From Amphiscolops sp. MND2022 (lineage: Eukaryota): 64,000 nucleotides of DNA. Position 1 is the stretch's first letter. Each line of letters opens with the position of its first letter. The notes under the pieces were generated by a model. The model was not told the DNA's origin, ran no database searches, and saw only the letters and a program-made list of their open reading frames with translations. Below, one piece after another: positions 25,993-45,226 of this stretch. The translations under genes and the position numbers were made by a program. The DNA lies in the NCBI GenBank assembly GCA_964187785.1, contig OZ076409.1:52516001-52580000 (forward strand), in the 5' to 3' direction.

Positions 25993-28237
25993 TGTCGAAC
26001 CCTACTCTGTGGGTCGGCTTTGAAGAACTTTGCGATGTCGAAGGTAAGTTATTTTCGTCATTTTTACTAATAACTGCCATTAATAAGTTCTTCAGTTGAC
26101 TAAATTCGCTTTGTAACTCATTTATCTTCTTCTCATAGTTCTCTCTTATTTCAGACAACTGGGACGAGATATCTGAAGTTTCGTTGTTGTCAGAGTCATT
26201 GGCGGATGACTGAGCCATGTCTGGATCTATTGGCGAAGATGTTCCTGACGAGGAATGTATGAATCTACCGCTTCTAAGTTCGGTACCTTGGTCTGGATTC
26301 ATGTATTCGAGAGAAAAGAATTATGAGTGAAGACTGAATTATCTGAGATGTTGTTTCAATGTATTTCGCTGATTTAACTGAATATTCAATCTCAAATTCA
26401 CTAATCTGAAACTGAGATGTTTTAGAAAGAAGTCGTACAAATAAGTAAGCAGTTAGATAAGGAGAAGGGAACTAGCAAGTTATTCAGGAGAAGTTCATCC
26501 AATTTTCATCACAGTAGTAGATGTACCAAGGAAATTACTCAGTTCAAATTCTTCAATTTCTGACGATGAAATAGAGATGTATTTTTTGACTTTCGCGTGT
26601 TAAAATATCCAACTGGTCGGTAGCTTGTCGCAATTCGGGCTGAGTAATCTTTTATGGCGGTCCAAATTACAGCAGTTCACGTGTCTTTTCGGTTGGTAAG
26701 ACGCTAAATCTCTTACCAACCTACTCTCATTGGCTGTTACCAGCTGGTGCTAAAATGGTAAGTCACGTGACCAGTGTTGTGAACTGCCGCAAAGTGGCTA
26801 CGCACCATGGTACATCTACATGTGTTAATGGTGTTTAGTCATCAATTTACAATGTCGCAATTGCCTGCACATAACATCATGGTTTCTATAGCAACTAAAA
26901 TGGACTCAAATCATTCAATAACGCACTAATTTCAATCAAATTTAAGGTAAAGCACACTTTGGGATGGGAAAACGATGTTTTCCGCTGATTCTAGCGCCAA
27001 AATCAATGATTTAAAACTTGAAGATGGAAATGCGATGAACTTGTAAGAATATTTGCTGATTTCCAAGTCTAGTTTTGCTCTGGATGAAAATGCGATGAAT
27101 GGTAGTCTTTCTCGTTCGGAAATCAACACAATTCAAACTGACGATGATAAAAGGATGAACTTCATGCATAATTTGCCAATTTCCAGCACAGATTCAAATG
27201 ACGATGAATTCGGGATGAATTCAGTCGATAAACGCTAATTCTAGTACATGAGAATTTTAGCGATGAGTTTAGGATGAACTTGTCAGTTAAAACAGCAAAT
27301 ACCAAAGCAATACAAATTGGCGATGAGTTTAGGATGAACTCACCAGTTAAAACACCGAATACTAAAGCAATTGGATTTAGCGATGAGTTTAGGATGAACT
27401 CACCCACTAAAATGGTTAATTTTCAGCACAAACGATATCAAGATTAATTAAGGATGGGTTTACTAAACAAATCAGATAACCAGCACTTTCACTCTTTTTA
27501 GGATGAATTAAGGATGTACTTTCTCATTTCCCTTCTGTACTAGTGAACGCGATGAATAAAGGATGAACTACCGTTCTTTAGAAATGAGAAGCACATTCAG
27601 GAATTACTAAATGAAATAATCACGATGAATTAAAGATGAGTTTTACTAGAATAAGTCCCATAAAATCCGCTGATGGATTTATGTTGAAAGTCAGTTTAAA
27701 GTCCCATGTTTTGTTCACTCGCAAATTTTAAGGATGGGATTGCGATGAACTTTGGTTAAAAGCACCGTTGAATCCGCTGATGGATCCAATTGAAATTCCT
27801 GATCAGGTCAAGATCGTCATCAAATACGACGATGAATTCGTGATGAATTTAATGGAATTTGTCACAACTACATACTCTGAGGCGGGGAGTTAGTAGAAGT
27901 TATACTTTCCATTACTTCCAATATTCCTCGGCCCAGTCTGACCGGAAAACTTCTCTCCCTTATCGTGACAAACCAATATTTACGAAATATAGCACTTTCA
28001 AGGCCAGATTCTGGCAAGATCATTTATGCGGACACCGGAACTAGAGCGCTCAGTATTAAGTAAATATATATATCTCACACTCAAAGGGGGAAGGGATTAA
28101 AGTACAAGTAACGTAGGGTTGCTCACAACCATGGCCCTTATTATATGACATCATATTGCCCATATCTAAGTACATAAGACATATTATTTACATTACAGAT
28201 ATTTAGTAGATTACATTTCCATCATGCTGGCATGACA
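25993..28237 (-). repeat. 3' LTR (2245 bp)
   Basis: Preceded on the minus strand by PPT GGGGAG. Differs from the 5' LTR by one extra 60-bp unit (about 27341-27400), two 1-bp indels and roughly 17 substitutions counted by eye. Confidence 0.95.
26963..27845 (+). repeat. Diverged ~60-bp tandem array in which only GATG-N7-GATG is conserved (copy in 5' LTR at about 44013-44835)
   Basis: Dyads start at 26963, 27023, 27083, 27143, 27203, 27262, 27322, 27382, 27502, 27551, 27624, 27733 and 27831. Confidence 0.9.
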
Positions 28238-28243
28238 CTCCCC
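28238..28243 (-). promoter_or_regulatory. Polypurine tract (short)
   Basis: GGGGAG immediately before the TGTCATG start of the 3' LTR on the minus strand. Confidence 0.7.
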
Positions 28244-29369
28244 GTGGTGGGATTTGGATTGAGAGTGCAGGGGCCAAATGTGCAGAGGATGGTTGTCTCG
28301 GCGTTGGCTTCGACTGCTTCCTTCGTTTGGTTGGGGCGAAAATGGCCTTCGTTAGTTCTGAATTTGCATGTCCTTCGTTTGTTCCGTCCTATGCAAATCT
28401 TCTCTGAGAAGAGGACTTTCGGCAATCGTCATGTCTAGTTTTATTCTGGGTGATTTCGGTTAAATATTATCGACGCGGCAACTCTGGTTCTTGGTCCATC
28501 GAATGTCCGCTGATCTGCATTTTATTGGTTGTCATGCTTTTGATGGGAGTTTCGGCTGGTTATTTTCGGTAGAAGCTGATTTCTCGGAGAAAAGTTTCCC
28601 TCCAAAACGCCTACACTGAATAAACAATTCGACTAACTTTATTGACAAATTGGCAGCGAGTCGGGGATGAATGAACGATGAATTGTTTACACAGCGAGGC
28701 ATTGATGTTGATTTAGCAGACGACTGGCGCCGTTGCTTTGCTATCAGCTTCCGTGATGAGAAAGAGATGAGTCGTTGCCATAGTAACCATTGAAGCTACT
28801 TCCGCTGTCTGAAATCTCAGCGATGAGAAAGAGATGGCCTGTTGCCATAGCAATCACTGCTAATTCTGATTGGTTGAAAACTGAATTTTCCGAGCTGAAA
28901 GAAATCCAACCGGTTGTCAACAAGTATTCTCATCCTTGAATCATCTTCCGTCAAGTCGGTTTGAAAATCGCCACGATTTCCTCTGCGCGTTTCCGCTCAA
29001 CTTCATCGGTATTGATCTGAGACTGGCAGCTGTCATCAAAATCAAATACTTGAAGCTGTCAAATTCTGGGGGGTGATTCATTTTCAGAGAAAATTGTCAA
29101 GTTGGTTGAACTAGGAAGGAAAGTGTAGGCAGTCATTGAAATCGGAGAGTTTTTCATCGATTTTCCATCTTCTGAATTTCAAGTATTTGGTTTGTCTTGG
29201 CACTCAAGCTGCATCCGCGCTCTTTGAGATTTTCCGCGAATTTGTATCCCGCAATCATGGTTGATCAGGCCATTTAATTACTGATCAAATTCTTGTCACC
29301 AGATTCTTCGATTTCGTTCCTTCCTCACTCTCTTCCGTTCCTTTTCAGATTGCTTTGCAAATTACAGTG

Positions 29370-32300
29370 ATGTCTGACATCCATTTCGTTCATTCTCTTC
29401 CAGAGACCGAAGCTACAGAAAGTAAGTGCACCATTTTCTTTTCTTTCACAAACGGGTCGGGGAACAATTAGGTGTTGAAAACGCGTCTTGGCTTTTTAGC
29501 GGACTCAGTTCAATCTGTCGGTGTCGTCTCTGAGCTGACCACTTTGCAAAACGTGCCGCCCCAAGAGGCTCCCGAAGCTCAAGCAGCAGCTCCTGAGCTT
29601 CAGTTTCAACCTGACCAACCGTTTGGTCAGGCTTCCAATGTCCCGTATCTTCCGCAGTGTAAGTTCTGTCCCTCCAGATCTTCAATTCAGTCCACAATCT
29701 CTTCATTTCTCATCTTTGGTCCCTTCAGACGTTGACTCTTTCCGTTTGATGTTTAGATCACTATCCTTGGCATGCCTCCCTCGGTAGCATCACCTTCGAG
29801 TGGTATGATCGCCACATGCGGGACATGCTACGAGATAGCATCCAGCAGTACAGTGAGTTGACTCCTTTTCACATTTCCGTCTGTACTAAGGTATCGTCCG
29901 GACACTCCGATGTAATTCCGATGTAAACATCTCATCTGCATGTAGTGCCCTTCACGGTCGATTACCTATAAGATTCATTTTTAAAGATGAATTTGGGATG
30001 CGTCATGGACATTCACCGTCCTTTCGTGGCTAATCCGTTTCCGAATTCCATTTTGAGGGTGAAATTTTTGGTGACTTCGTTTCCTGTTTTCTTTCTTCGC
30101 GCGGCGTACGCGCACTCTCTTCATCATCTGTCGTCGTCTGATTTCTGTTTTCTTCTTTCAGGCCCGACTCCTATCCACGCCCCAAGGCCTCGCCCTATTA
30201 CGTATTCCGTGGGTATAGGAACGAGCGACTTTGGTGCAACACAGGTTGACGCTGCTACCCAAGGAGGGCCTTCTTCCCTGGAGATGTCCTCGTTCTTCCA
30301 GGACTTGTCTCTGGGCGCGATCAGCTCCCCTGTGGCACGTGCCCCAGTGTCGGTGCTCTCGCCAAGCTTTCAGCGATTTCTGGATCGTGAATCAACACCT
30401 CAAAGTCCTCCTCCTCCTGTTCGTATCACCGTAGAGACAGGAGTCAGTGCCGTCGTCACTCCTGTGGATGTGGCGGTCGATGCCTGCGTGGCTGTTGCTG
30501 ATCAGTCTGTTCAGGCCGTTGTGGAAACTGGCGAGACATCCACAGAATATGATCCTCCCGTGGACACCCTTCCGGCTGCTCCTTCTTCGCCAGCTGTTAG
30601 CGTCTCTGGAACTTTGGAGGCTGACGTTGAGCGGTCTGACGTGCCATCAACCGACAGCACTGATACCCTACTAGAGGCAGTCGAGAATGTCCCTGTTGGT
30701 GATCCTCTGTCTGCAGAGCCTGCTCCAGAAGGTGCTGTTCCTGGCCTGGTTCCTGTGTCTGCTGAGACGTCTCCCATGGGACCCAGTCTCGTGGACTCCG
30801 ACGACGAGCCCATTGCGTCTCGCTTGCCAGGTTACCTAAACATCTTTAACTCTGTGAAGTATTTGATCGGTAACTTTTATTCATTTCCTTTCATTTCCAC
30901 TTTCACCAGTGTTTTTCTCGTCTTTCTTCTTTTCCATCTATTTTCCATCGTTTTTCTGTTTTTCATATGATTTTCTGCAGTTTTTTCATTTCCCATCACT
31001 TTCTCATCCTTAAAAGTCTTGAGTATAGCGTTTTCTTCTCTGATCATTTTTTAGAACTTTCCACCTCTCTTACATCCTTAAATTTTTCTTGCTCGGTTTA
31101 GCCATTTTTGTCGTTTTCTTTTCAGTTTACATCTCTTTTTCATCGTTAAGTCATTTTCGTTCTAAAATATCTCAATTTTGGTTCAACGTTGTTCTATACA
31201 TCTCTTTTTCATCGTTCTAGGCTTTCGTCTTTTAAAGTTTCAATTTTCTGTCCTGGTGGCTTGTAAACACATCTCTTTTTCATCTTTTCGTTTTTTCTTC
31301 GTTTTTCGCTTATATTTCCAATGAAAATATTATTTTACATCATGTTTTCATCACTCCGGGTGAGTTTTTTGTTTTTTTTGAAATGTTCGGTTGGTTTTCT
31401 ATTTTTCGGTATTCTAGGATGTGTAGAGGATGGGGTTAACATTTTTCGTTGTTCTTTTGATATCAGGAAGGAAAATTCTCAAGTCAGCGTGGTTTAACCA
31501 TGCTTATTGTGGATTGGCGCTCGGCTTCCCGAAGGATCACCTTACGCGCGATTCGTACGCGAGATGTCTACTCTGCAGGCAAGATGTCAAGATCGGTAGC
31601 CGCGGGATAACAACCTTCTTTGAACACTGCCGGGGAGGAGTCAGACACCACCGGCTGGACTGTCTGACGCGATTGCGACGGGGCCTACCGCTGCGCAGAC
31701 GAGATGGGACACTGATGTCCCAAGCCGAGGCAGACATGTGTGGTGCCGCACTAAGTGGTGAGTCAGTACCGTTGATTGAGACGTGTCCAGATGTGACTGT
31801 TCTGGAGGCACTGCAGATCGAGGCGAGTGATGGTTCAGTGTGGGGCACAAGGCGAGTCGCAGAGGATGACGACCACACTGACAGTTTTCGATTGTTCGTG
31901 TGTCTAGTGATTGATGCGATCTATCGGGACTGTAATTTTGCAAGTGTGCGACATCTTTGGGACCTGATGGTTGCCTCCAATTCGCAGCATGCTGTCATGT
32001 TTGGCGCGACTTGTCGAGAATCCGACGTTCTGGTTATTATGAATCTTTTCCGGATGCATGAAATAATTACATGTTGCATGTATTGTTATTTGTATGTTAC
32101 ATGTGAAACTTCCGATAATTTTGGGGTATTTGTATGAAAATTTTTATTTTTTGTTAAAAACTACAAGGTTGGGGTGTGTGTTAATTGAGTGGTCAGTAGG
32201 TAACTATATGAGAATTTAAAATGATGATTGTAGGATGAATGTATGGTCTTGTTTTAGAGCGTTGTTCTACTTGGACTCTGGCCGTTTGTGATGAGACGAG

Positions 32301-34147
32301 TAATTTGTGCGTGGTCCGAAACAGAATTCAGCAGTTTCGGTGTGACATTAGTGGCGGACAGAGTGGTGGGCACGCTGAATGTATGTACCTCGGAAGGGCC
32401 TGCGAACTATGTGGTCTTTTCATTTGCTTATGGACAAGAGTGGGAGCAGCGAGTGGTCTCGTGGGCTGTCAATGTGTTGTGTTGCGCTGTGGGGCAATTG
32501 GCACCTGTTGGCCTCAATTGTCGATTGTTGTCTGGGCTGGAAAGAGTGTTGGTCAGTCGCTCTGGACCAAGGACAGTCTCACTTGTGTCGTTAAAACTTA
32601 CCGAGCTAAACAAGCGTCTGGTGGATGCGAGCATTCGTGTGATGGGCGGGACAGATGTACATACGATATTGAACCATTTGCAATCAAGGCTAAAAGAATT
32701 CGTCCAGGACCCAATCATTTTAGCTTGTCCAAAGCTCTTGCAGGTAACTATTTGTTATTTTTCGATTATTTTTCACTCATGTTGATGTGTCGATTTTTTG
32801 GGGGTGATGCTTTTCGTGGTTGTATCATGTGTAATTTAGGAATTTTTTATTTTTATAAGTTCTTGTTTGTTATAGTGCGTGTTAGATGGAGAGGTAACCC
32901 TCTGGGACGTACCGGACGTGTTGGCTGAGTTATCCGAGAATTGGGCAGAGGTCTCGGATCTGTTGAGAGTGCCTAGTGGATCCGGCGTCATTGAGTCTTT
33001 GGACTTTGAGCTGTGTGGGGATCGTGCTATCCCTTTCCGTTTGCAGGCCTTAGCTAGTGTCTTTCGTGCACGTATGTATGTTTTTTGTTTTCTTGGTGCA
33101 TATCGTTTCGTTATTTACAGTGTCTTAATTTAATAAAAGATATTTGGTTGGGGAATCGAGTAGAGAGCGTGTGACTTGACTATGCTTTTTTTGCAATAAT
33201 TTTTGTTGTTTTCAGTCGTCGATTCATATCGCTGGAGCTTCAGCAGTTGTCCATTGAGGAGTTTCCATTGGGCGTACGAGAGTGCGTGTTTTGTGCACGC
33301 AATCTTAGTCAAGCTGATAGACGACGATGACCTGCCTAGTGTGACCGAGGTGCGGGCTTGCTTGGAAGTGGACGTGGACAATTTGACTGTGTCATATGCC
33401 AAGTTGCGAATCATGAGGGAGGAATTTGGTCCCTACTTAGGGCAAGTTGCAGAAGCTGCCGTAATTGATGAGCACTTGGCGATGGTGCAAAGCTTCATGT
33501 TTGTAGTGGTTGAAGACATTCTAGCTGCTCCCGGAATGAAAGAAGAAGTGACATATCATTTGAGTGTGGGTTGCCCTGCTCTTTTGTTGCGTGGTGAAAT
33601 TGACGTGTTACGAAATGAAGCTGAACAATTTACTGGATTGCTCCTGGATCTGGGGAGGATAGGACTCGCTGAGAAGAGACGGATGGATGGGAGCTTCGTC
33701 TCATTCGTGACCAACTTCAGGCAGAATGCAGTTGATATGTCCGTAGACAGTGCAAGTTCAGCAGTGGACATTTTGCGGGCATGTGAGAGTTCATCGTGTC
33801 AACGCTTCTTCCGTTTCTTGATGTGTCTGGGTGAGACACCTGTATTCCCAGCAGGTATCAGTTGCGTAAGCGTGGGAGGGTTGAGCAGTGATGTCACGAC
33901 AAGTGTTTGCTCAAGTATTCTAAGTTATTTGAGGACGCATTCCATCAGACAGTTCGAAACTGTGAGTGGGCCGTTACTGGAGGAGGTTACGGAGTCAATT
34001 GGTCATTTCACAGCTTTAGCCGATTTGAAAGAAGAGATGCTGTGGGATGATGTAGGAGTAGTCGCGGATGAAGAATACCGTCAGTCGTTGTACGATGCGA
34101 TCGGATTTACAGCTGCTGGAGAGCGCGCAGCTAGCCCTGAGGTTTAG
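29370..34147 (+). CDS. Predicted 8-exon antisense accessory gene of the retrotransposon, ~1051 aa, with acidic/Pro-rich N-terminus, BED/hAT-type zinc finger and a possibly hAT-transposase-derived C-terminal body
   Basis: Exons 29370-29421, 29500-29658, 29757-29852, 30162-30830, 31467-32032, 32258-32743, 32876-33071, 33216-34147. All seven introns are GT-AG and phase-compatible; total 3156 nt with no internal stop. Zinc finger: CLLCRQDVKIGSRGITTFFEHCRGGVRH. Confidence 0.8.
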
Positions 34148-34409
34148 AAATGACTTGCTGTTTATTATTATTTTTTTGAAGCTGTTTGTATCTTTCATGT
34201 TATTTTATATTACTGTATGTTATAGTATTGTATCTAGCAAATGGGTGACCAATTGAACGAATTTACAGGGGGGGAGAACAACAGATGCTACGTCGGAAAG
34301 GTCGGTAGCGTAGATATATACATATTTAGTGTTTGGCACCCGAAATTTGTTTTTCTCTTGAGACATTTTTAGGTGAGGATAGGGATAGGTTAGATTTGCG
34401 GATAGTTTT

Positions 34410-34788
34410 CATCGCTTTCTCATCACATTTTATTTTCGCGCGTTTTAGATAACTTTTATTACGGTGTTCATCGTTATTACATCTCGTGTAGGTGTGGGTA
34501 ATTCATCAGTGTTTCATTGTGATGTCTCATCTCATTTTCATCTTGTTTTCCTCAGTCGACCGAGCGACGTCGCGAAAACTGTTTTCTCATCTTTTTTACA
34601 TCTTTCGTTGTGTGGAAATCATTGGATGTTGTTTCACGTGTTTTTCTGCAAAGTTCATCGTTTTTTCATCTTGCGTTTTCATTTGATCATTTTGGCGAGT
34701 TATTTGCTGTAGTTCATCGTTTTTGCATCGCAAGTTTTGACTTGTCGAATTTTGCTCATTTTGCTGCATAGTTCATCTTCTTTTCATC
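34410..34788 (-). repeat. CATC-N7-CATC array (~60-bp period)
   Basis: Dyads at 34410, 34469, 34528, 34588, 34656, 34715 and 34774. Confidence 0.88.
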
Positions 34789-36180: not shown

Positions 36181-36715
36181 CATCGTTTTGACATCCTCCA
36201 GCGAAGCTAGAGTATTGTGTCAGGCTAACGATAAATTCGGTCACGATTTGATGGTAGTGTCCATCACAAATTCATCTCGTTAATTGATTTCATGTAATTT
36301 CTGAATAATTGGATCGAGTTCATCGCTATTTCATCCTCTAGCCGAGCTAGAGTATTATGATAGCATGAACGTGAGTGCGTTCGCATTCTGATGGTATTTT
36401 CCATCTCAAATGCATCGCTAGTAAATATTGCATGTTGATTGGTCGAATTTTTGACTGAGTTCATCACTTTTTCATCTCTCGTGTGTCTGGGATAAATTTT
36501 CATGTGATTTCATCCTTTTTTCATCTCAAATTTTTGTGTGTTGTTTTTTCTGGGTTTTTGGTCGTTTTTCATCCGTTTTACATCGTGTTTTGTTTTTATG
36601 CGTTTTTCATGCGATTTTTAGTAACTTTTCATCCATTTTACATCTTCATGTTCATTTTAAATTGAAATTGCATGTAATTGACTCGTTTTTGTGAATTGTT
36701 CATCTTTAACACATC
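36181..36715 (-). repeat. CATC-N7-CATC array downstream of pol
   Basis: Dyads at 36181, 36262, 36321, 36402, 36463, 36511, 36570, 36630 and 36701. Confidence 0.88.
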
Positions 36716-36743
36716 GTGTGTTTTGAAATGTTGTTTTTCTTGG

Positions 36744-38072
36744 CTAACTCGTTACGTTTACTTTGTTGGTCTTTCTCAGAGAGTTTCTGGCTGATGTAAT
36801 CTCATGAATAAGGAAGTCAGGATATTTTTTCGGTGTAGGGTTCTCGCGTAACCTGTACCTACTCTGATTGTTTCTAGACGGTCTAGAACTCATCCTTTCC
36901 TCATCTTCAGTTTGCGTGTTTGTCTGTTGTGACTGATTTTCGTGTTGTTCGTCTCTCAGAGGTACTCTTATCCTACTTTCATCGCGGGGGGGCGGTAGAA
37001 TAATTTCTTCTTGCGTTCCAAATCTAACTGTAGGTGGTCTAAAGTTGTTGTGGTCAGTTTCTACTTGCTGATAATCTATTCTCGTGGTTATTTCTGGTGG
37101 AATAACTTGTGGACTGTGTTGTTCTTGTACTTGCGGAATTATTTCTTCTGAAGGCTCTTCTTCGACTAAGTCTTGATCTAGATTGTCATTCTCATTCTGA
37201 TCTACTTCGTCGGTCGTCGGAATGTTCGAGTCGAAAATGTCCGTGTCTTCAACCCTTTCAGTGTCTGGGTAGAGATGTTTGGACACGTTGATGTCATCAA
37301 TCGGGAATTCCGGTTTAAACAATCTCAGTCGCATGCGATGTACGCACTGAGTTTGGTGTGTGCCTACTTTGCGGATGATGTAGTTGCTATCGGATAGCAC
37401 TTTCATCACCTTGTACGGTCCTTTCCAATGGAAAGTTTTAAACTCTTCTTTGCTTCTCTGAGAGTCGTATTTAGGATCTAGTAGGAACACAAATTCATTC
37501 ACCTTCAGTGGCTGTGCTCGTGCTTTTCTATCATAGTACGTTTTGTACTTATGATAGGCGGAAATGATGTTATCTAGATTGTCTCTGAAGATGAAGTTCA
37601 TTTTGTCTAGAATTTCGTTCACGTCCTTGCACTTTGTTTCAGCCGGTTTGTTTGCGTTTCGGAATTGCAGATCTAGTGGGTTGTATGGTGTTCTTCCGTG
37701 GAAAATTTCAGTTGGTGAACATTTCAGTGAATCATGATACGTTGTGTTATGGGCCATGATTGCTATGTCGACATAGCGGTCACATTGTGGTCGGTCTGCG
37801 TTTACACTAATTTTAAGGATCTTTTTCAGTTTCGCGTGCGTTCTCTCTACCATGCCTATTGTCTGTGCGTGCTTTATCGTGGCATGGGAGATGTGAATAT
37901 CAGCCGCTTTCGCGATTTCAGACAGAAGTTCAGCCGTAAACGCCGTGCCCTTGTCCGTCAGAATGTGCTTGGGCACATACGCGTGTTTCGTGAAGATCGA
38001 CAGTAATCCTCTGACTACGGAATGTGTATCAGGTCTCTTCAGCGGAACGGCGAACAGGTAGCGTGAAAAAAC
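36744..38072 (-). CDS. pol: Remainder of integrase (core DDE and C-terminal tail), separated from pol by an 8-nt frameshifting insertion
   Basis: Frame continues VFSRYLFAVPL...ILTDKGTAF...VERTH...WKGPY. Removing GGCGCGGC (38073-38080) restores AVDVFSRY. Confidence 0.9.
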   Translation of the reverse strand, partial: VFSRYLFAVPLKRPDTHSVVRGLLSIFTKHAYVPKHILTDKGTAFTAELLSEIAKAADIHISHATIKHAQTIGMVERTHAKLKKILKISVNADRPQCDRYVDIAIMAHNTTYHDSLKCSPTEIFHGRTPYNPLDLQFRNANKPAETKCKDVNEILDKMNFIFRDNLDNIISAYHKYKTYYDRKARAQPLKVNEFVFLLDPKYDSQRSKEEFKTFHWKGPYKVMKVLSDSNYIIRKVGTHQTQCVHRMRLRLFKPEFPIDDINVSKHLYPDTERVEDTDIFDSNIPTTDEVDQNENDNLDQDLVEEEPSEEIIPQVQEQHSPQVIPPEITTRIDYQQVETDHNNFRPPTVRFGTQEEIILPPPRDESRIRVPLRDEQHENQSQQTNTQTEDEERMSSRPSRNNQSRYRLRENPTPKKYPDFLIHEITSARNSLRKTNKVNVTS

Positions 38073-41000
38073 GCCGCGCCGTCAACAGCCGTCAGAATGT
38101 GTGTGAAACCGTTCGACGCCGGGAGTGGACCAACGATGTCTATTTCCAACAGGTCTTCTGGTCCGTCGCACGGGTCGTAGATTTTTTGTAACGGTGGACG
38201 TAGTTGCGTTTCTTTTACACTTTTAGATTTCATGCAGTTTTCACATCCGTCAAGGACTTTTTGAACTTTACAGGCTAAGTTAGGAGAGTAATATCTTTTA
38301 CGAAGTTCGTACAACATTTTCTTTAAACCAGGGTGTCCTTGTACCGGGCTGTTATGTAGAGTCCTAATTATTTTCAAAATACAGTCTTCAGGAACAACTA
38401 ACTGCTTGTGAGACTCCAGTCCCGTGTGATCAAAAAACTGTCTGTACAAGACACCGTTTACAACTTGTAGGCGTTTTCGATTTTTGTGCAACTTTTGAAA
38501 AAACTGATCTTGCATATTAACTGGGTGTTGCAAAATTTCAGTACCTTCTAAAAATCTAATCATTTTTTGAATAACCCAGTTATTTTTCTGGACCTGAATT
38601 AGATCGATCCCCTCAGCGGGGCTAACCTGACTCATTACCGGGTGTGATAATGATACTTTACGGATGAATTGCGAGAGTTGAATCGGCTCGTCCACGTCTG
38701 TGAGGCGGTACGTCAGATGGTTGTCAGTCGCGAAGTCATCTGAGGCCGCTGTTCTCTCACAGTTGGTGAACTTCATCCCTTTCCCATCGTCATGAGCCAC
38801 GTCAGTGCCAGTTGCCAATTTCATCTCTTTGACATCCTTCTGGCGTTTGCATCTGAGTGGTTCGCTCGTGGGAAAGTAATCAGGCTCGTCTTCCTCCTGT
38901 TTTGGTGTACGGGAGGCGATGTCGATCTCGATTCTGTGAATTGGAATAGTATCAGTCAATTTTAAATGTACACGGTCTTCAGGTCTAATCTCAAGCCGAG
39001 ATAAGTAATCCGCTGCGGGATTTTCAACTCCTGGAACATGTGCTAATAAAAAATTGAACTGAAGGGTTTGATCGCAAAAATTCCAAAGTGAAGGCGGGAT
39101 ATGCTTCGCCTGAATAAATCTAGTCAAGGCCTTATTGTCAGTCATAACAATGATGGGTTTTTTCGCACCCCACAAAATGTGGCCAAATTCATCGAAGGCA
39201 AAGTGCATAGCTAAAAACTCTTTGGCATACATTGTTAGAGACATCTGGCCGCCCTGAAATTTGTTAGAGCCAAATGCAACAGGGGCGTATGTTTGTTTGA
39301 CTGACGGGTCAGCATAATCCTCAATTAACAAAACATAGCCGGCAGCGTGTTCGCTGGCGTCACACATGATTACCAATTGTTTATCAGGTAATGGCAATTT
39401 CAGGGACACTTTTGTTGCTTTTAACAAACTTTCATTGATTTCAAAAATAGCATCTTTATGTTGTTGATTCAGTTTGAAAGGGACGTCCTTCTTGATCAAC
39501 TCCTGTAAACAACAAGTTTTATCAGCTAGGCGGGGAATATAAGACCTGTAAAAGTTTACAAAACCAAGATAACGTTGCAACGCTTTCACTGAGTTGGGGG
39601 GTTTCAATTTGGTCAGATAGTCAGTTACTCGTTTCTCAATGGGAGCAATACCGGTGCTAGAAATTGTTTTTCCCAAGTACTCAATTTGCTTTTGTCCAAA
39701 TTCACAATTACTCATGCTAAGTTTAAGACCAGCTTTGTTCAACTGCTGAAAAACAAGTTCAAGGTTATTAATCAGTTCGTCAGGGGTGTGTGCTGCAATT
39801 CCGATGTCATCAACATATTGAGCACATCGGTCCGCTTTGACCAGGGGGTCCAAATACTCACGGACTACACTTGTGAATGCTGACAAAGAACGATTAAGGC
39901 CCTGTGCTAGGCGTAAAAAGGCAAAAGTTCTAGAACCAAAATTAAACGATAACAGTTGGACAGACTGCTCATCGGCCATTGGGATGCAATGGTAGGCCTG
40001 GGAACAATCAAGTATACAGAAGTACTTTTTCCCGGCCATATGTTGGGCAGCGTCAGCAATTGTTGTTACGGGATGGTTGTGTTCACCGTAATCGTTTTTG
40101 ATCAAGTGGTTTATTCTTCTCAAGTCAACTAAAATCCTCAATTTACTATTAGGTTTACGTTGAGCGAATATCGGAGATGAGTATTTGCTATGAGGCAAAG
40201 TAGTTATGATCCCGTACTCTTGCATTAAGGCTAACTCCACGAGCAAATCGTCCTTCAAATTTGTCGGAGTAGGGAGACTTTGTGAATAAACAGGTTCTTC
40301 ATGTTGGGGTGTTAGCTTAACTTTAAAATCAGTGTTCATGCCAATATCAAAACGATGTCTAGCAAAAATGGAGTTGTACTTTACCAGCAACTCCTCTACC
40401 TGTAACCGTTGAGACGTAACCGTAGTAAGAAGCGAGTCGTCCCAGTTGAAGTTCTTCAGGAAGTTCATCCGTTGTTCATCGGATTGGGACGGGTCAAGCT
40501 TCTCGAGCTCTCGCAGTGCCAGAATCTCATCATAGATTCGTCGCTCAATTGCGTTGAGTTTGTCTGGCTCACTGCACGTCTCGGGAGTTGGGTACCACTT
40601 AGTTGACTTCATTTCAGGGTTCACGAACAGTTGGTTGATCACTGCTTCCGCCTCATCTGGGTACTTGGTGATCAGGTTCAAGTGTTCGACTGGCATGGGT
40701 GTGATGTTTGCCGCCTGATGTGGTGTCGATATGCGAAAGTGTGCCAGAGTGGTGTTGGCATCGAGTGTGAACGTGTGGTTGTTCGGGTTGGTGACCTGGA
40801 TTGTCGTCTTGCCCTCGTCTAGGTCAACCAAAGCTGGGGAAACAAGCAAACACGTCTTTCGCATGAATCCAGGTGAGCCCTCAACTGTACCAGTTGTAAG
40901 TGGGATGTCCGCGTCACTGTGGACCTGTATCATCACTTGATGGAGAGGAGGGATCACTGTTCTAGTACTGGAACACAAATCAATTAAACCAGTTTTGAAT

Positions 41001-41851
41001 CTGTTGTTCTTTTGCTGTCTAACTTGCATGGACATCATGTGATTAGGGAAGTGAACAAGGTGGTTTTTTATGTCTAAGTTGACTGAGTACTTTTCAAAGA
41101 ATGACATTCCAATTAAATTTGTGCCCATTGTTGGAAGGATTAGGAACGTTTCTTCAAAGACTTTTCCAGCAACGTAAAATCTAAGTAAGACTTGCTTACG
41201 CACTGGGACTAAGTTCCCGTTTGCTATTTGAATTTTGAAATTCGGAGGGGGGAGTTCTTGAAGGATGGCTTCTGGATGAGCCGTTGTTATTTTTCGCAAT
41301 TCTGCTTCAGACATTGCGCTTTGAATTGCGCCTGTGTCTAACAGTGCATGATTTTCGTATTTATCAAACTGAAGAGGGACGTACAGCATTTTATCTTTCT
41401 TGTTTAAATGTAAAGTGGGACTAAGAACGTGAATTTCTGTTTTAGTTGCATGTTTGTTAGCTTTTGAAATGTTAGTACTACTATATTTTGCATGTTTTTT
41501 AATACTAAGCCGTTTGTCGATTATTGAGTATGAAGTCGAGTCGTCGTCTAGATGGTTGGTGTCCATCTCTTTGGCATCGTCCACCTGCCTCATGGTGTTT
41601 TGTTGCCAGTTCATCGTTTGTTCATCGTTGATTTCAGCGAGTGGAGAAAAGCGGCTGCCGTTGCGTTGACGTGCATTTCCCATCGCTTTTTCATCGTTGG
41701 AAAGTCTTCGCTGATAGACGTCGTCAGCTTTTGGTCGTTTGTCCAGTGAAGGCTGCCATTTCTTCATTGGACGGTTGTGTGTAGTCGGTTGAGTCGAAAG
41801 TCGTTTGTCGCGCGTTGTATTTCTAGCGGGCGGAAATCGTGGCTGAATCAA
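38039..41851 (-). CDS. pol: Pol: aspartic protease, reverse transcriptase, RNase H, N-terminal integrase (in -1 frame relative to gag)
   Basis: LLDTGA (PR); LDCSQAY and YVDD (RT); IMCDAS and NPAADYLSR (RH); HNSPVQGH...CENC (IN zinc finger); IDIVGPLP (first catalytic Asp). Confidence 0.95.
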   Translation of the reverse strand: MIQPRFPPARNTTRDKRLSTQPTTHNRPMKKWQPSLDKRPKADDVYQRRLSNDEKAMGNARQRNGSRFSPLAEINDEQTMNWQQNTMRQVDDAKEMDTNHLDDDSTSYSIIDKRLSIKKHAKYSSTNISKANKHATKTEIHVLSPTLHLNKKDKMLYVPLQFDKYENHALLDTGAIQSAMSEAELRKITTAHPEAILQELPPPNFKIQIANGNLVPVRKQVLLRFYVAGKVFEETFLILPTMGTNLIGMSFFEKYSVNLDIKNHLVHFPNHMMSMQVRQQKNNRFKTGLIDLCSSTRTVIPPLHQVMIQVHSDADIPLTTGTVEGSPGFMRKTCLLVSPALVDLDEGKTTIQVTNPNNHTFTLDANTTLAHFRISTPHQAANITPMPVEHLNLITKYPDEAEAVINQLFVNPEMKSTKWYPTPETCSEPDKLNAIERRIYDEILALRELEKLDPSQSDEQRMNFLKNFNWDDSLLTTVTSQRLQVEELLVKYNSIFARHRFDIGMNTDFKVKLTPQHEEPVYSQSLPTPTNLKDDLLVELALMQEYGIITTLPHSKYSSPIFAQRKPNSKLRILVDLRRINHLIKNDYGEHNHPVTTIADAAQHMAGKKYFCILDCSQAYHCIPMADEQSVQLLSFNFGSRTFAFLRLAQGLNRSLSAFTSVVREYLDPLVKADRCAQYVDDIGIAAHTPDELINNLELVFQQLNKAGLKLSMSNCEFGQKQIEYLGKTISSTGIAPIEKRVTDYLTKLKPPNSVKALQRYLGFVNFYRSYIPRLADKTCCLQELIKKDVPFKLNQQHKDAIFEINESLLKATKVSLKLPLPDKQLVIMCDASEHAAGYVLLIEDYADPSVKQTYAPVAFGSNKFQGGQMSLTMYAKEFLAMHFAFDEFGHILWGAKKPIIVMTDNKALTRFIQAKHIPPSLWNFCDQTLQFNFLLAHVPGVENPAADYLSRLEIRPEDRVHLKLTDTIPIHRIEIDIASRTPKQEEDEPDYFPTSEPLRCKRQKDVKEMKLATGTDVAHDDGKGMKFTNCERTAASDDFATDNHLTYRLTDVDEPIQLSQFIRKVSLSHPVMSQVSPAEGIDLIQVQKNNWVIQKMIRFLEGTEILQHPVNMQDQFFQKLHKNRKRLQVVNGVLYRQFFDHTGLESHKQLVVPEDCILKIIRTLHNSPVQGHPGLKKMLYELRKRYYSPNLACKVQKVLDGCENCMKSKSVKETQLRPPLQKIYDPCDGPEDLLEIDIVGPLPASNGFTHILTAVDGAAFFHATCSPFR

Positions 41852-43353
41852 AAACCCTGGTTAATGTCTTCATCAGAGTAGCTTAGTTGTTCGTCGTCCT
41901 CAGTAATTGCTTGCATTGGATTCAACGGCTTTTGCTGTCGTTTTAAATCTTGTCGTCTAGCCTTGTTGTCGTCCTGTGAATTCGTTGTGTATGGAATCTT
42001 TCCATATGCAGAGCTGCTTTCCTTGGGAATGCGTCGTCTGCAGTCTCTTGCAGAGTGGCCGGTGTATCCACAAATCTGGCAAACCAGCTTGGGATTGTAC
42101 TTCGGTTTGTCTGGGTCGGTTGCTTTCTTCATCGGAATTGCATCTTCTTTCTTAATGCCGTTTGCTTCGTCACGTTGTCGGGCGCGACATTCCGTTTTGC
42201 GGTGACCTGTCTTTCCGCAGTAGAAGCATTGTCCCTCAAATCGTTTTCGTTCTGTCGGTTGCGTTGTCGTTGTTGTTGCTGGTTTAATCGTTGTGTTGGT
42301 CGTTGGGACCGAGGAGGTGACCGCGTTAAATGGTTGAATTGCCGTTGGTGGCGCAACGTACTGTTGGTACTGGTACTTTCTCATCAAGTATGTCTTGATT
42401 TCTTCTGGTGAGCTCTCCTCCTTATTGGCCATCGTAAGTTCTTGTTGTATTTCGACTGGGAGTTTACCGAACAAGAACATTTTGATGATTTTATCCGCTT
42501 CTTCCCCAAATGCTTGTTTCGCAATCTTTTTCAAGTTTTTGAGGAAGTCGCTGAATGTTTCTGTGGTGGGATCGTAACGGGCTTGATCCCATTTGTATCG
42601 AGCTACTTCTTTAAGGTCCTCTTTCGCGAATTCTTTCCTGAAGAGGTCGAGTACATCTTTCAGCGTTGTTAGTGGCGTTATCTGGATGGATTGCCAGTAC
42701 TCTATTGCATCATCTCTCAAAAGGCTTTGAAAGAAGTGGAGTTTGTTCTCTTCGGTGATTTTGTTGGCGAGCGGGCTAAGGTGGTTAAGGAGAAGGTGCT
42801 CGAATTCCACGAATTTGTCTTTTTGGCCTCTGAAATTTGGGACGTGTGTCTGTAGTAGTTTCGTGTTGGTGGTGGTGCTTTTGATTCGTTGGGGGATCGT
42901 CTCGATTGCATTGAGTAGTCGTTCCTCATTGCTTCTAGGAGTTGATTCACCTTCTTCGTCCGAGTCGTCTTCCTGGAATCGCCTGAAGTTTGTGAAGCTG
43001 GATGTCGGGCGGGTGGAGCGGGTTTCTGTAACTCCTGTCACCATGTCGAACCCTACTCTGTGGGTCGGCTTTGAAGAACTTTGCGATGTCGAAGGTAAGT
43101 TATTTTCGTCATTTTTACTAATAACTGCCATTAATAAGTTCTTCAGTTGACTAAATTCGCTTTGTAACTCATTTATCTTCTTCTCATAGTTCACTCTTAT
43201 TTCAGACAACTGGGACGAGATATCTGAAGTTTCGTTGTTGTCAGAGTCATTGGCGGATGACTGAGCCATGTCTGGATCTATTGGCGAAGATGTTCCTGAC
43301 GAGGAATGTATGACTCTACCGCTTCTAAGTTCGGTACCTTGGTCTGGATTCAT
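41848..43353 (-). CDS. gag: Gag (coiled-coil N-terminus, capsid-like region, two CCHC zinc knuckles)
   Basis: 501-aa ORF with CFYCGKTGHRKTEC and CQICGYTGHSARDC. It starts inside the 5' LTR and reads through the PBS. Confidence 0.95.
   Translation of the reverse strand: MNPDQGTELRSGRVIHSSSGTSSPIDPDMAQSSANDSDNNETSDISSQLSEIRVNYEKKINELQSEFSQLKNLLMAVISKNDENNLPSTSQSSSKPTHRVGFDMVTGVTETRSTRPTSSFTNFRRFQEDDSDEEGESTPRSNEERLLNAIETIPQRIKSTTTNTKLLQTHVPNFRGQKDKFVEFEHLLLNHLSPLANKITEENKLHFFQSLLRDDAIEYWQSIQITPLTTLKDVLDLFRKEFAKEDLKEVARYKWDQARYDPTTETFSDFLKNLKKIAKQAFGEEADKIIKMFLFGKLPVEIQQELTMANKEESSPEEIKTYLMRKYQYQQYVAPPTAIQPFNAVTSSVPTTNTTIKPATTTTTQPTERKRFEGQCFYCGKTGHRKTECRARQRDEANGIKKEDAIPMKKATDPDKPKYNPKLVCQICGYTGHSARDCRRRIPKESSSAYGKIPYTTNSQDDNKARRQDLKRQQKPLNPMQAITEDDEQLSYSDEDINQGF
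41851..41857 (-). promoter_or_regulatory. -1 ribosomal frameshift slippery site G GGU UUU
   Basis: CAG GGT TTT TGA ends gag. The heptamer fits X XXY YYZ, and pol is open in the -1 frame (TTG ATT CAG...). Confidence 0.8.
43031..43043 (-). promoter_or_regulatory. Primer binding site, tRNA-Leu-like
   Basis: TGGTGACAGGAGT abuts the LTR end and matches 12/13 nt of the complement of a typical eukaryotic tRNA-Leu(CAG) 3' end (TGGTGTCAGGAGT). Confidence 0.75.
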
Positions 43354-45226
43354 GTATTCGAGAGAAAGAATTATGAGTGAAGACTGAATTATCTGAGATG
43401 TTGTTTCAATGTATTTTGCTGATTTAACTGAATATTCAATCTCAAATTCACTAATCTGAAACTGAGATGTTTTAGAAAGAAGTCGTACAAATAAGTAAGC
43501 AGTTAGATAAGGAGAAGGGAACTAGCAAGTTATTCAGGAGAAGTTCATCCAATTTTCATCACAGTAGTAGATGTACCAAGGAAATTACTCAGTTCAAATT
43601 CTTCAATTTCTGACGATGAAATAGAGATGTATTTTTTGACTTTCGCGTGTTAAAATATCCAACTGGTCGGTAGCTTGTCGCAATTCGGGCTGAGTAATCT
43701 TTTATGGCGGTCCAAATTACAGCAGTTCACGTGTCTTTTCGGTTGGTAAGACGCTAAATCTCTTACCAACCTACTCTCATTGGCTGTTACCAGCTGGTGC
43801 TAAAATGGTAAGTCACGTGACCAGTGTTGTGAACTGCCGCAAAGTGGCTACGCACCATGGTACATCTACATGTGTTAATGGTGTTTAGTCATCAATTTAC
43901 AATGTCGCAATTGCCTGCACATAACATCATGGTTTCTATAGCAACTAAAATGGACTCAAATCATTCAATAACGCACTAATTTCAATCAAATTTAAGGTAA
44001 AGCACACTTTGGGATGGGAAAACGATGTTTTCCGCTGATTCTAGCGCCAAAATCAATGATTTAAAACTTGAAGATGGAAATGCGATGAACTTGTAAGAAT
44101 ATTTGCTGATTTCCAAGTCTAGTTTTGCTCTGGATGAAAATGCGATGAATGGTAGTCTTTCTCGTTCGGAAATCAACACAATTCAAACTGACGATGATAA
44201 AAGGATGAACTCCATGCATAATTTGCCAATTTCCAGCACAGATTCAAATGACGATGAATTCGGGATGAATTCAGTCGATAAACGCTAATTCTAGTACATG
44301 AGAATTTTAGCGATGAGTTTAGGATGAACTTGTCAGTTAAAACAGCAAATACCAAAGCAATACAAATTGGCGATGAGTTTAGGATGAACTCACCCACTAA
44401 AATGGTTAATTTTCAGCACAAACGATATCAAGATGAATTAAGGATGGGTTTACTAAACAAATCAGATAACTAGCACTTTCACTCTTTTTAGGATGAATTA
44501 AGGATGTACTTTCTCATTTCCCTTCTGTACTAGTGAACGCGATGAATAAAGGATGAACTACCGTTCTTTAGAAATGAGAAGCACACTCAGGAAATACTAA
44601 AAGAAATAATCACGATGAATTAAAGATGAGTTTTACTAGAATAAGTCCCATAAAATCCGCTGATGGATTTATGATGAAAGTCAATTTAAAGTCCCATGTT
44701 TTGTTCACTCGCAAATTTTAAGGATGGGATTGCGATGAACTTTGGTTAAAAGCACCGTTGAATCCGCTGATGGATCCAATTGAAATTCCTGATCAGGTCA
44801 ACATCGTCATCAAATACGACGATGAATTCGTGATGAATTTAATGGAATTTGTCACAACTACATACTCTGAGGCGGGGAGTTAGTAGAAGTTATACTTTCC
44901 ATTACTTCCAATATTCCTCGGTCCAGTCTGACCGGAAAACTTCTCTCCTTATCGTGACAAACCAATATTTACGAAATATAGCTCTTTCAAGGCCAGATTC
45001 TGGCAAGATCATTTATGCGGACACCGGAACTAGAGCGCTCAGTATTAAGTAAATATATATATCTCACACTCAAAGGGGGATGGGATTAAAGTACAAGCAA
45101 CGTAGGGTTGCTCACAACCATGGCCCTTATTATATGACATCATATTGCCCATATCTAAGTACATAAGACATAATATTTACATTACAGATATTTAGTAGAT
45201 TACATTTCCATCATGCTGGCATGACA
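43044..45226 (-). repeat. 5' LTR (2183 bp), contains the first 103 codons of gag
   Basis: Minus strand reads TGTCATGCC...GGGTTCGACA, followed directly by the TGG PBS. Matches 25993-28237. Confidence 0.95.

Follow-up and report, generated by a model that had tools for sequence, protein, structure and literature searches.

A complete Ty3/gypsy LTR retrotransposon in the window (the whole 64-kb stretch of DNA that was analyzed) carries an element-wide series of the dyad GATG-N7-GATG, and comparisons among related lineages indicate that these dyads are under purifying selection in the transposing lineage. Judging from sequence, the best explanation of the dyad is a site for protein binding in which two RNGATGAA half-sites are spaced 11 bp from each other. 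Its binder may, with about an even chance, be the element's own antisense-encoded finger protein.

The element occupies positions 25993..45226 on the minus strand (19,234 bp). It was delimited by an LTR pair detected by BLAST, TG…CA ends, and a 5-bp target-site duplication (ATTTG) read directly at 25988-25992 and 45227-45231. These features and the order of the gag-pol Pfam domains on the minus strand (zf-CCHC, gag-asp_proteas, RVT_1, RT_RNaseH, Integrase_H2C2, rve, and Integrase_p58_C) identify it as a Ty3/gypsy element. As placed by BLAST and motif search, the 3′ LTR in element sense (25993..28237, minus strand) is 2,245 bp long and the 5′ LTR (43044..45226, minus strand) 2,183 bp; BLAST found the pair to be 97-99.6% identical, with the 3′ LTR longer by one 60-bp unit. 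A primer-binding-site-like sequence that begins with TGG adjoins the 5′ LTR (43026..43043, minus strand), and a polypurine-tract-like stretch with the end …ACGGGGAG in element sense adjoins the 3′ LTR (28238..28250, minus strand); both were read directly. Within the LTR, a block at 26640..26940 (no strand assigned) is highly conserved among lineages W (that of the window element), D, and B. It contains CACGTG at 26678 and 26764 and may be the core promoter region.

All coding frames of gag-pol lie on the minus strand. The gag frame (41851..43521) encodes two CCHC knuckles, contains one dyad (42130), and remains open across the primer-binding site into the 5′ LTR. The pol frame (38042..41860) encodes protease, RT, RNase H, and the integrase H2C2 domain, and has dyads at 38774, 38822, 40466, 41264, 41564, 41612, and 41681. 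The remainder of the integrase follows in a different frame (36747..38081), with one dyad (36891). The frame break at about 38039-38081 belongs to the window copy, as other copies have a single open frame of 1,703 aa. From the end of the integrase (36747) to the LTR (28237) there are 8.5 kb, which hold antisense exons and dyad arrays.

On both strands of the 64-kb window, GATG-N7-GATG has 75 exact matches, of which 73 lie at 26496-44835, within the element. Dinucleotide-preserving shuffles of the window (n = 100) gave a mean of 1.73 dyads and a maximum of 6. The LTR at 25993-28237 holds 15 dyads and that at 43044-45226 holds 16, with the other 42 between them. When the spacing k was varied from 0 to 30 within the element, k = 7 formed a single peak with 73 dyads and each other spacing yielded 0-5. 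In the other 44.8 kb of the window, the k = 7 spacing occurred twice, on par with other spacings. The ratio of exact to one-mismatch dyads was 73:26 inside the element versus 2:24 outside. The earlier note had put the number of dyads at about 66; with 73 dyads, the excess is greater than claimed. Its tally of LTR dyads was exact and that of internal dyads (35) too low. The remainder of that description was borne out, namely a fixed half-site spacing of 11 nt, a variable spacer, both orientations, repetition about every 60 bp, and no enrichment outside the element.

The 11 bp between half-sites correspond to approximately one helical turn. Among 57 non-redundant sites, the spacer is variable yet A-rich, and the motif extends to R-N-GATG-A-A in both halves. 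The base preceding GATG is C, which gives CGATG, in 24 of the 57 first halves and 16 of the 57 second halves. Internal dyads are oriented 10 plus and 32 minus, while the left LTR has 14 plus and 1 minus and the right LTR 15 plus and 1 minus. Neighboring dyads are most frequently 59-61 bp apart, and the distances between dyads cluster at 47-51, 59-63, 67-74, and 79-84 bp; a period of about 10 bp fits them best. Tandem Repeats Finder (TRF) reported a 60-bp repeat at 27256-27404 as well as 11-bp repeats.

The placement of the dyads agrees with that given in the earlier note: they precede the accessory gene, occupy its introns, form two internal arrays, and occur in gag-pol. An LTR array with 59-60-bp phasing and GATG on the plus strand (26963..27845) lies upstream, in element sense, of the conserved LTR block, and has its twin in the other LTR (44013..44835). 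An array of nine dyads (36181..36715) separates the integrase end from the accessory-gene end; a further internal array holds seven (34410..34788). Six dyads (30935..31352) occupy the intron preceding the finger exon, and five (28666..29169) lie between the LTR and the first conserved coding segments of the accessory gene.

We also counted the motif in the whole genome. A double-dyad pattern occurred 17,239 times, compared with 120 for a reversed control, and single dyads occurred 100,399 times, compared with 26,360 for the reversed control, an excess of about 74,000. The k = 6 spacing, which served as a further control, gave 33,412 matches. The k = 8 count (67,338) was dropped as a control because it is swollen by (GAT)n microsatellites. 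Among the first 100 double-dyad places listed, 99 were assigned to copies of the element clade in an informal classification by position and sequence likeness. The remaining place was an unrelated CATCGATG repeat, and no host-gene sites were among those 100. These results support the specificity of the dyad motif to this element clade.

Half-sites are far better conserved than their surroundings. Between units of the arrays, flanks are 30-37% alike pairwise and half-sites 97-100% alike. In the alignment of W and D LTRs, identical columns made up 111 of 112 (99%) in half-sites, 74 of 98 in spacers, and 726 of 1,071 (68%) in the rest of the array zone; the corresponding figures for W and B were 85 of 112, 48 of 98, and 580 of 1,071. 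Lineage A, at 71% nucleotide identity, retains four of the nine coding dyads without any change. Comparison of the two LTRs within one insertion separates selection from low mutability. Within a single B insertion, half-sites mismatched at 8 of 208 positions versus about 5% elsewhere, and within a single E insertion at 11 of 72 versus about 16% elsewhere. Because half-sites mismatch like other sites between the LTRs of one insertion, they are not mutational cold spots. Conservation between lineages combined with neutral decay after insertion thus points to purifying selection in the transposing lineage. Seven LTR copies that are 98-99% identical to the window copy had 2 mismatches in 728 half-site positions and 107 in 6,279 others, a comparison that cannot separate selection from low mutability because these copies share ancestry.

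The accessory gene is spliced, lies antisense to gag-pol, and encodes one BED-like zinc finger. Its segments are all on the plus strand. One exon (30149..30830, 5′ end approximate) encodes an acidic, proline- and serine-rich low-complexity region. The finger exon (31466..32037, 3′ end approximate) encodes a single CxxC…H…H finger and a helical subdomain. It is followed by an exon of 162 aa without a Pfam match (32257..32743) and by a conserved segment, detected by tblastx against lineages D and A, that is probably also an exon (32870..33079). The last exon (33215..34147, splice acceptor read directly) encodes 310 aa that are helical and match no known fold in model and fold searches. This exon has 43 homologues, and our search for longer ones found none.

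The finger exon has 77 relatives, and 139 of 150 scored genomic copies are free of stop codons. Its structure is predicted confidently (pLDDT 87). The pattern Y-x-R-C-L-L-C-x16-H-C-x5-6-H-H is conserved among the relatives, and, judged by eye, it fits the BED signature Cx2C…Hx3-5H after aromatic residues. The sole PDB profile match of the finger was the ZBED2 BED finger (E = 0.28), and the same ZBED2 chain was the top Foldseek match (E = 2.6). In Pfam, 4 of 47 relatives touched zf-BED (PF02892; best E = 0.019), short of its gathering threshold, and the accessory exons of the window matched no family at E values up to 1. A wide structure search with the finger-exon model was filled by a helical hairpin, and querying the ESM Atlas with the finger exon and the last exon gave no usable lead. 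Conservation within the protein is highest in the finger, with 52 of 75 residues identical between W and D and 43 of 76 between W and A, compared with 55 of 118 and 46 of 112 for the rest of the exon. Collectively, these data support a conserved single zinc finger in the predicted accessory protein, whose only affinities, all sub-threshold, are to BED fingers.

Across lineages, the dyad appears to track the type of finger. Four lineages with the window finger type contain 73, 70, 50, and 43 dyads. In contrast, two lineages with the same architecture and a distant finger (F-type, 29-37% identity) contain one dyad each and are enriched for another motif, GATGTGGT. Three gypsy stretches without a match to the accessory gene, which comprise two copies of one family and one truncated fragment in the window, contain 0, 0, and 1 dyads. 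The co-variation is supported by these counts and represents one phylogenetic split, between W-type and F-type. The earlier note's statement that the element encodes a zinc finger protein is supported. The non-autonomous lineage B retains its LTR dyads with only a fragment of the accessory gene. Lineage E was considered as an independent gene-less lineage with dyads and rejected, as its protease is 84% identical to that of lineage A and its interior is deleted; as a decayed relative of A, it is uninformative about the accessory gene. Two distant relatives of the finger, P0063 and P0040, were absent from this genome at E values of 1e-20 and 1e-25.

The dyads recur roughly every 60 bp in the U3-like, upstream portion of each LTR and in the noncoding DNA in and around the antisense gene, and some are overprinted on gag-pol coding sequence. 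The candidate binder, the element's own protein, combines one BED-like finger with an acidic low-complexity region and helical domains. With a single finger, a dyad, and likewise an array, would have to be occupied by two or more molecules in head-to-tail order. Such a protein could recognize members of its own family and boost or shield their transcription; this downstream effect, whether transactivation or anti-silencing, is a guess. Extended to the clade, and held tentatively, at somewhat less than an even chance, the proposal is that a large group of gypsy elements (thousands of first-look candidates) has a private addressing system. An antisense, spliced BED-like finger protein would read a ~60-bp dyad code in LTRs, introns, intergenic arrays, and coding sequence, and the code would switch with finger type between sister clades, with GATG-N7-GATG in one and the F-type motif in the other.

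Several other readings of the dyads deserve weighing. The tandem arrays, their 59-60-bp period, the TRF 60-bp repeat, and the one-unit difference between the LTRs would suit functionless remnants of neutral 60-bp tandem duplication, possibly homogenized by conversion. This is extremely improbable. Near-random flanks surround invariant half-sites, the contrast holds between lineages, and half-sites decay neutrally only after insertion; chance would give an exact to one-mismatch ratio of 1:12 or worse, and single dyads occur, and are conserved, in coding sequence. The check proposed earlier for this reading, spacers as conserved as half-sites, thus came out against duplication. The A-rich spacers and the clustered inter-dyad distances with their ~10-bp period could instead reflect a structural DNA feature, in which phased A-rich tracts punctuated by GATG would bend the DNA or govern nucleosome placement or exclusion. 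However, variation is free in the A-rich parts but absent from the eight specific bases, structural signals have no need of exact tetramers, and the distance steps may come from slippage of 11-bp half-sites, in line with the 11-bp repeats; we consider such a feature highly improbable. It is also improbable that the motif is read in RNA (GAUG-N7-GAUG) as a packaging, export, or stability signal for Gag or a host RNA-binding protein. Although 32 of 42 internal dyads are in gag-pol transcript sense and Gag has two CCHC knuckles, the LTR arrays are oppositely oriented (14 of 15 dyads on the left, 15 of 16 on the right) and lineage A has seven inverted dyad pairs, 24 bp apart. Moreover, the 11-bp spacing and the inter-dyad steps of about 10-11 bp suggest reading of the double helix, and arrays that grew by duplication are expected to show an orientation bias.

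The dyads may also be sites for a host DNA-binding protein, recruited as an enhancer, insulator, or chromatin-opening array, with the accessory protein doing something else. We regard this as unlikely, although it is a real contender. The evidence for selection and specificity fits a host factor equally well, the dyad is unchanged while the finger diverges to 46-55% identity, dyads are kept in the non-autonomous lineage B, and the BED assignment of the accessory protein is weak. On the other hand, all but one of those 100 double-dyad places, the exception being the unrelated repeat, were informally judged to belong to the element clade. Sister lineages in the same genome with the other finger type are without the dyad, which a generally useful factor would not obviously predict, and instead of forming a single regulatory cluster the dyads spread across the element, into introns and coding sequence as well. 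Binding by the element's own finger protein meets objections as well. One finger faces a direct-repeat site, so that an asymmetric dimer or cooperative monomers would be needed. The co-variation is one split, and the same picture would arise if one clade had recruited a host factor. In addition, the finger falls to 46% identity in lineage A while the dyad is letter-perfect, which is tolerable but unexpected under tight co-evolution. The dyads that lineage B keeps beside its gene fragment would fit action in trans and a host binder equally.

The closest known systems are VANDAL/VANC and the plant Retand elements. In Arabidopsis VANDAL21, the transposon encodes an accessory protein, VANC, and its non-coding parts hold tandem repeats of a short motif; binding and hypomethylation are demonstrated there, and where the proteins of related elements have diverged, their targets are different as well (Hosaka et al. 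2017, PMC5735166). The window element similarly has a short motif amplified in its own non-coding regions beside an accessory protein gene, and its W-type dyad and the F-type motif would parallel the change of motif with a diverged protein, here in one split only. In contrast, VANDAL is a Mutator-type plant DNA transposon and ours an LTR retrotransposon. The window protein is BED-like, with exons without a Pfam family, and is set beside VANC by description only. In our system, described from sequence, the motif is strictly a dyad, with half-sites 11 bp apart. CpG observed/expected is about 0.9-1.2 throughout the 64-kb window, without depletion, and therefore the window bears no visible footprint of a methylation-centered, VANC-like mechanism. 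Retand elements (plant Ty3/gypsy) are described as having, between pol and the 3′ LTR, a long stretch with tandem-repeat arrays and an antisense ORF for a putative DNA-binding protein, which carries a TRP28 domain (PF04195) (PMC11963269). Our element resembles them in its long pol-3′ LTR region with an antisense gene and repeat arrays, although its gene is spliced as well as antisense and the earlier note took its host to be an animal. The parts of the Retand report drawn on here give no defined motif or selection footprint (PMC11963269), whereas both are present in our element. The accessory exons had no Pfam match to TRP28 at E values up to 1.

Other parallels are more distant. HTLV-1 Tax acts with 21-bp repeats in U3, and HBZ is an antisense spliced gene; foamy-virus Tas has sites in the LTR and an internal promoter. 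The window element shares with these viruses a candidate regulator, repeated U3 and internal sites, and an antisense spliced gene starting near the 3′ LTR, but we found no sequence relationship, and it has tens of sites along its entire length, including some in coding sequence. Drosophila gypsy carries one cluster of 12 sites for Su(Hw), a host zinc finger protein. Here too there are tandem candidate zinc finger sites in a gypsy-type element, but they are element-wide and the candidate binder is element-encoded. BEAF-32 and DREF are BED-finger proteins that read clustered CGATA-type words, and hAT transposases bind subterminal repeats; a single BED-type finger reads a short word, which is multiplied for stable binding. 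Many of our half-sites read CGATG and there is one candidate BED-type finger, although BED membership is sub-threshold here and no transposase domain is attached. Full-text literature searches listed no paper on a gypsy element that carries GATG dyads or an antisense gene for a BED-like protein.

To our knowledge, the means by which retrotransposons maintain transcription of their copies despite host silencing are poorly understood, and the sole clear transposon-encoded, sequence-specific anti-silencing factor that we know of is in a plant DNA transposon. The cis side of the present element is unusually legible: it consists of an eight-base dyad whose halves keep a constant distance of 11 bp, and selection on it has left a footprint that can be measured. 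A candidate trans factor is encoded nearby. If the binder is a host protein, the arrays would identify a factor on which a highly successful element family depends. If the element's own protein is the binder, it would provide a programmable match between finger and DNA word, as well as a handle on how the clade reached thousands of copies. A private addressing system, if true, would be a retrotransposon counterpart of the VANC arms race, or a transactivator of the complex-retrovirus type that arose outside retroviruses.

On its minus strand, the window carries a 19,234-bp Ty3/gypsy element (25993–45226, hereafter W). Its direct repeats (25993–28237 and 43044–45226) are 99.6% and 97.2% identical over two BLAST segments and differ by one 60-bp unit; sequence inspection revealed LTR ends of TG...CA and a 5-bp ATTTG duplication on both sides. 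A primer-binding-site-like TGG... adjoins the LTR at 43043, and the same strand encodes gag, in a frame that includes two CCHC knuckles, followed by a pol frame of 1,273 aa (protease, RT, RNase H and the H2C2 domain of integrase) and the remaining integrase in a different frame. In this copy, integrase falls into two overlapping frames, with the break at 38039–38081, which probably makes the copy non-autonomous despite its young LTRs; in many other copies in the genome, pol is a single open frame of 1,703 aa. The open gag frame extends across the primer-binding site and covers 478 bases of the 5′ LTR (43044–43521), with an ATG at ~43356, so gag translation may start inside the LTR.

Approximately 8.5 kb separate integrase from the 3′ LTR, and this interval contains a spliced gene on the opposite (plus) strand, referred to as the accessory gene. 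Its conserved coding segments lie at ~30149–30830, 31466–32037 (the finger exon), 32257–32743, 32870–33079 and 33215–34147. Readable splice signals comprise acceptors preceding 31466, 32257 and 33215 and donors following 30830 and 32743; the finger-exon donor (near 32037) and both ends of the 32870–33079 segment are approximate. Elsewhere in the window, a second gypsy fragment, unrelated to W, occupies ~59400–64000 on the minus strand (protease 62567–63160, integrase 59430–60614) and continues past the end of the window. One uninterrupted 536-aa frame with AAA ATPase and AAA-lid domains (5774–7384, plus strand) is presumably a host gene or retrogene.

Exact searches for the dyad GATG-N7-GATG returned 75 matches in the 64-kb window, 73 of them between 26496 and 44835; 100 dinucleotide-preserving shuffles averaged 1.73 matches and never exceeded 6. 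The LTR at 25993–28237 contains 15 dyads, the LTR at 43044–45226 contains 16 and the interior contains 42. An earlier note had counted 15, 16 and 35; its LTR counts were reproduced, and its internal count was too low. The single spacing it described was also recovered, as a scan of spacer length k from 0 to 30 inside the element gave 73 pairs at k = 7 and 0–5 at any other k. The remaining 44.8 kb contain two k = 7 matches, similar to neighboring spacings, in agreement with its observation that the enrichment is confined to the element. GATG/CATC words number 292 in the element versus ~121 expected at flank density (283 in 44.8 kb), so the excess resides almost wholly in dyads. The ratio of exact to one-mismatch dyads was 73:26 inside the element versus 2:24 outside, indicating that all eight dyad bases are near-invariant.

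Across 57 non-redundant dyads, drawn from the interior and a single LTR, both halves are part of a longer motif, R-N-GATG-A-A. The purine two bases 5′ of GATG is present in 54/57 first halves and 46/57 second halves, and an A directly follows GATG in 35/57 and 38/57, respectively. The spacer is rich in A and otherwise unconstrained. Dyad arrays occupy both LTRs (26963–27845 and 44013–44835), an intron of the antisense accessory gene (30935–31352) and the region between the two convergent genes (34410–34788 and 36181–36715); five further dyads lie at 28666–29169 and nine in gag-pol. Beside the LTR array is a block (26640–26940, with a twin in the other LTR) that is strongly conserved among W and two related lineages, D and B, and contains two CACGTG boxes (26678 and 26764) and an inverted repeat around GGTAAGACGC…CTTACC. 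Pooled over six related sequences, neighbor distances cluster at 47–51, 59–63, 67–74 and 79–84 bp, with none at 52–58. Their best period is ~10 bp (vector strength 0.66, n = 97; 0.47, n = 50, without the 59–61 class), although the arrays share ancestry and the pooled distances are therefore not independent. These steps may reflect helical phasing of adjacent sites, or, equally, slippage by one 11-bp half-site unit; TRF detects 11-bp repeats within the arrays. In a further related lineage, A (G000:C1:932983-949263; L039+L046+L040), a plus-strand dyad is followed 24 bp on by a minus-strand dyad seven times, forming a larger palindromic site.

A neutral duplication history was rejected as the cause of the dyads. 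When array units were placed in register (for the LTR array, by the 60-bp period only), half-sites were 0.97–1.00 pairwise alike, spacers 0.41–0.70 and flanks 0.30–0.40 (0.30–0.37 in the three longest arrays), the last being near random for composition. The LTR array has an exact dyad at 9 of 10 positions, and the tenth differs by one change at 27442 that is absent from the other LTR. Between the LTRs of W and D, 111/112 half-site columns are identical versus 74/98 spacer columns and 726/1071 other array-zone columns; between W and B, the values are 85/112, 48/98 and 580/1071. Spacers are thus less conserved than half-sites, the outcome that the earlier note had set against neutral tandem duplication. 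The two LTRs of one insertion, which are identical at insertion and later decay without selection, served as a neutral control. Half-site mismatches were 3/96 and 5/112 in the LTR pair of B versus ~5% elsewhere, and 11/56 and 0/16 in that of an old copy, E, versus 15–17% elsewhere. Half-sites are therefore not mutational cold spots. Since they are kept only along the transposing lineage, the dyads matter for propagation of the element, and these alignments indicate that they are maintained by selection for it.

Dyads are also found in coding sequence. All eight sense-strand dyads of gag-pol (36891, 38774, 38822, 40466, 41564, 41612, 41681 and 42130) are in the frame GAT|Gnn|nnn|nnG|ATG, encoding D-x-x-x-M; the other two frames would create TGA stops with the preferred GATGA half-sites. 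Four of the nine coding dyads are exact at aligned positions in lineage A, where nucleotide identity is 71% and chance retention of eight bases is ~7% per site. Three coding dyads grouped in a poorly conserved gag-protease stretch are retained in lineage A.

We then expanded the counts to the 1.07-Gb assembly containing the window. Two dyads 40–50 bp apart occur at 17,239 places versus 120 for a reversed version of the pattern; among the first 100 places listed, 99 lie in copies of the W clade, as judged informally by position and sequence likeness. Single dyads number 100,399 versus 26,360 for the reversed control. The genome-wide count is 33,412 at k = 6 and 67,338 at k = 8, the latter inflated by (GAT)n microsatellites, which need masking in genome-wide k-scans. 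One long (GAT)n microsatellite at G000:C1:80773-81109, with others like it, inflates counts of GATG pairs at multiple-of-three spacings.

Compared with the 73 dyads in 19.2 kb of W, lineage D (G000:C1:2698422-2717605; L043+L049+L044) has 70 in 19.2 kb, lineage A (pol 69–78% and finger exon 46% identical to W) has 50 in 16.3 kb, and L057 (finger exon 67% identical) has 43 in 10 kb. The non-autonomous B, with gag and an accessory-gene fragment, has 29 in 10.5 kb, and E, a decayed relative of A, has 14 in 7.3 kb. The flanks of all these copies contain 0–2. In an unrelated gypsy family (pol ~25% identical to W), two copies gave no dyads over 10 kb each, and the second gypsy fragment (57–64 kb of the window; pol 30–50% identical), our in-window control, has one and no enrichment. 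W and D share 89% nucleotide identity in gag-pol and 96% amino acid identity in pol; their LTRs are only ~75–77% and their accessory proteins 48–57% identical. The module of LTR and accessory gene has either evolved much faster than pol or been exchanged by recombination.

No accessory-gene exon matched a Pfam family. Among 1.84 billion representatives, a search with the finger exon recovered 77 relatives, of which 40 reached E ≤ 1e-10. Ten that were looked up all came from ENA assemblies (one also in Logan and JGI/IMG), and at least one relative is identical to a locus in the genome of the window. That genome yielded 2,122 first-look candidates, and of 150 copies scored (71–100% identity), 139 lack a stop codon. 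The conserved core is Y-x-R-C-L-L-C-x16-H-C-x5-6-H-H. An AlphaFold model built from 47 sequences had a mean pLDDT of 87. The sole PDB profile match was the ZBED2 BED finger (2djr, E = 0.28), the same chain gave the top Foldseek row (E = 2.6, not significant), and 4 of 47 relatives touched Pfam zf-BED (best E = 0.019). This evidence is weak but consistent, and we describe the finger as BED-like without assigning it to the BED family. Conservation within the protein peaks at the finger (W–D 52/75 and W–A 43/76, compared with 55/118 and 46/112 for the rest of that exon); other accessory exons are only 24–27% identical between W and A. An acidic low-complexity region rich in Pro and Ser is encoded by the exon before that of the finger. 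The last exon is helical, and model and fold searches found no recognizable fold in it.

Sister lineages in the same genome have the same layout, with an antisense gene between integrase and LTR, and a distant finger type (F-type). Lineage F (L054+L055, G000:C11:49673001-49693000), with pol 60% and finger exon 29% identical to W, has one dyad in 20 kb; L056, whose finger is 37% identical over 82 aa, has one in 10 kb. Both are instead enriched for a different word, GATGTGGT, found post hoc in F (10 observed versus 0.84 expected, maximum 6 in 300 Markov simulations) and met again in L056 (4 versus 0.38). It has the GATG core in common with the dyad, and most of its copies are scattered and do not form arrays. 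Overall, dyads abound in four lineages that have the W-type finger; the two F-type lineages and three gypsy stretches without an accessory-gene match (two copies of one family and a truncated fragment) are dyad-poor. This distribution is as a pairing of finger and word would predict, yet represents one phylogenetic split only, and a host factor recruited by the clade would yield the same pattern. Binding of the dyads by a host protein is the main rival explanation, which we consider rather unlikely. Readings in which the motif acts in RNA, is purely structural or is neutral are less likely still.

Collectively, our results indicate that selection maintains a pair of RNGATGAA words 11 bp apart in one gypsy clade, in its LTRs, its non-coding interior and parts of its coding sequence. 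Judged from these sequences, the chances are about even that the element's own single-finger protein binds the dyad. As the half-sites are direct repeats, this would require an asymmetric dimer or monomers that bind cooperatively along the arrays. CpG observed/expected is 0.88–1.19 in both the element and its flanks, with 0.80 for the second gypsy fragment, so strong methylation of CpG in the element in the germline is not indicated; a methylation-centered mechanism has left no footprint in the window. No paper listed in full-text literature searches describes the arrangement seen in W. Comparable systems include retroviral Tax, HBZ and Tas, the Su(Hw) cluster of gypsy, and BED proteins reading CGATA clusters. 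Among the systems compared, VANC, whose targets are tandemly amplified in the VANDAL transposons of Arabidopsis (PMC5735166), comes closest in function. In architecture, W most resembles plant gypsy elements of the Retand lineage, in which the region from pol to the 3′ LTR carries an antisense TRP28 ORF as well as tandem repeats of unknown function (PMC11963269). In W, the LTR arrays lie upstream of the conserved block with the two CACGTG boxes and, in the opposite direction, those of the 3′ LTR lie upstream of the antisense gene. Our guess is that dyad binding would raise or protect transcription of family members.
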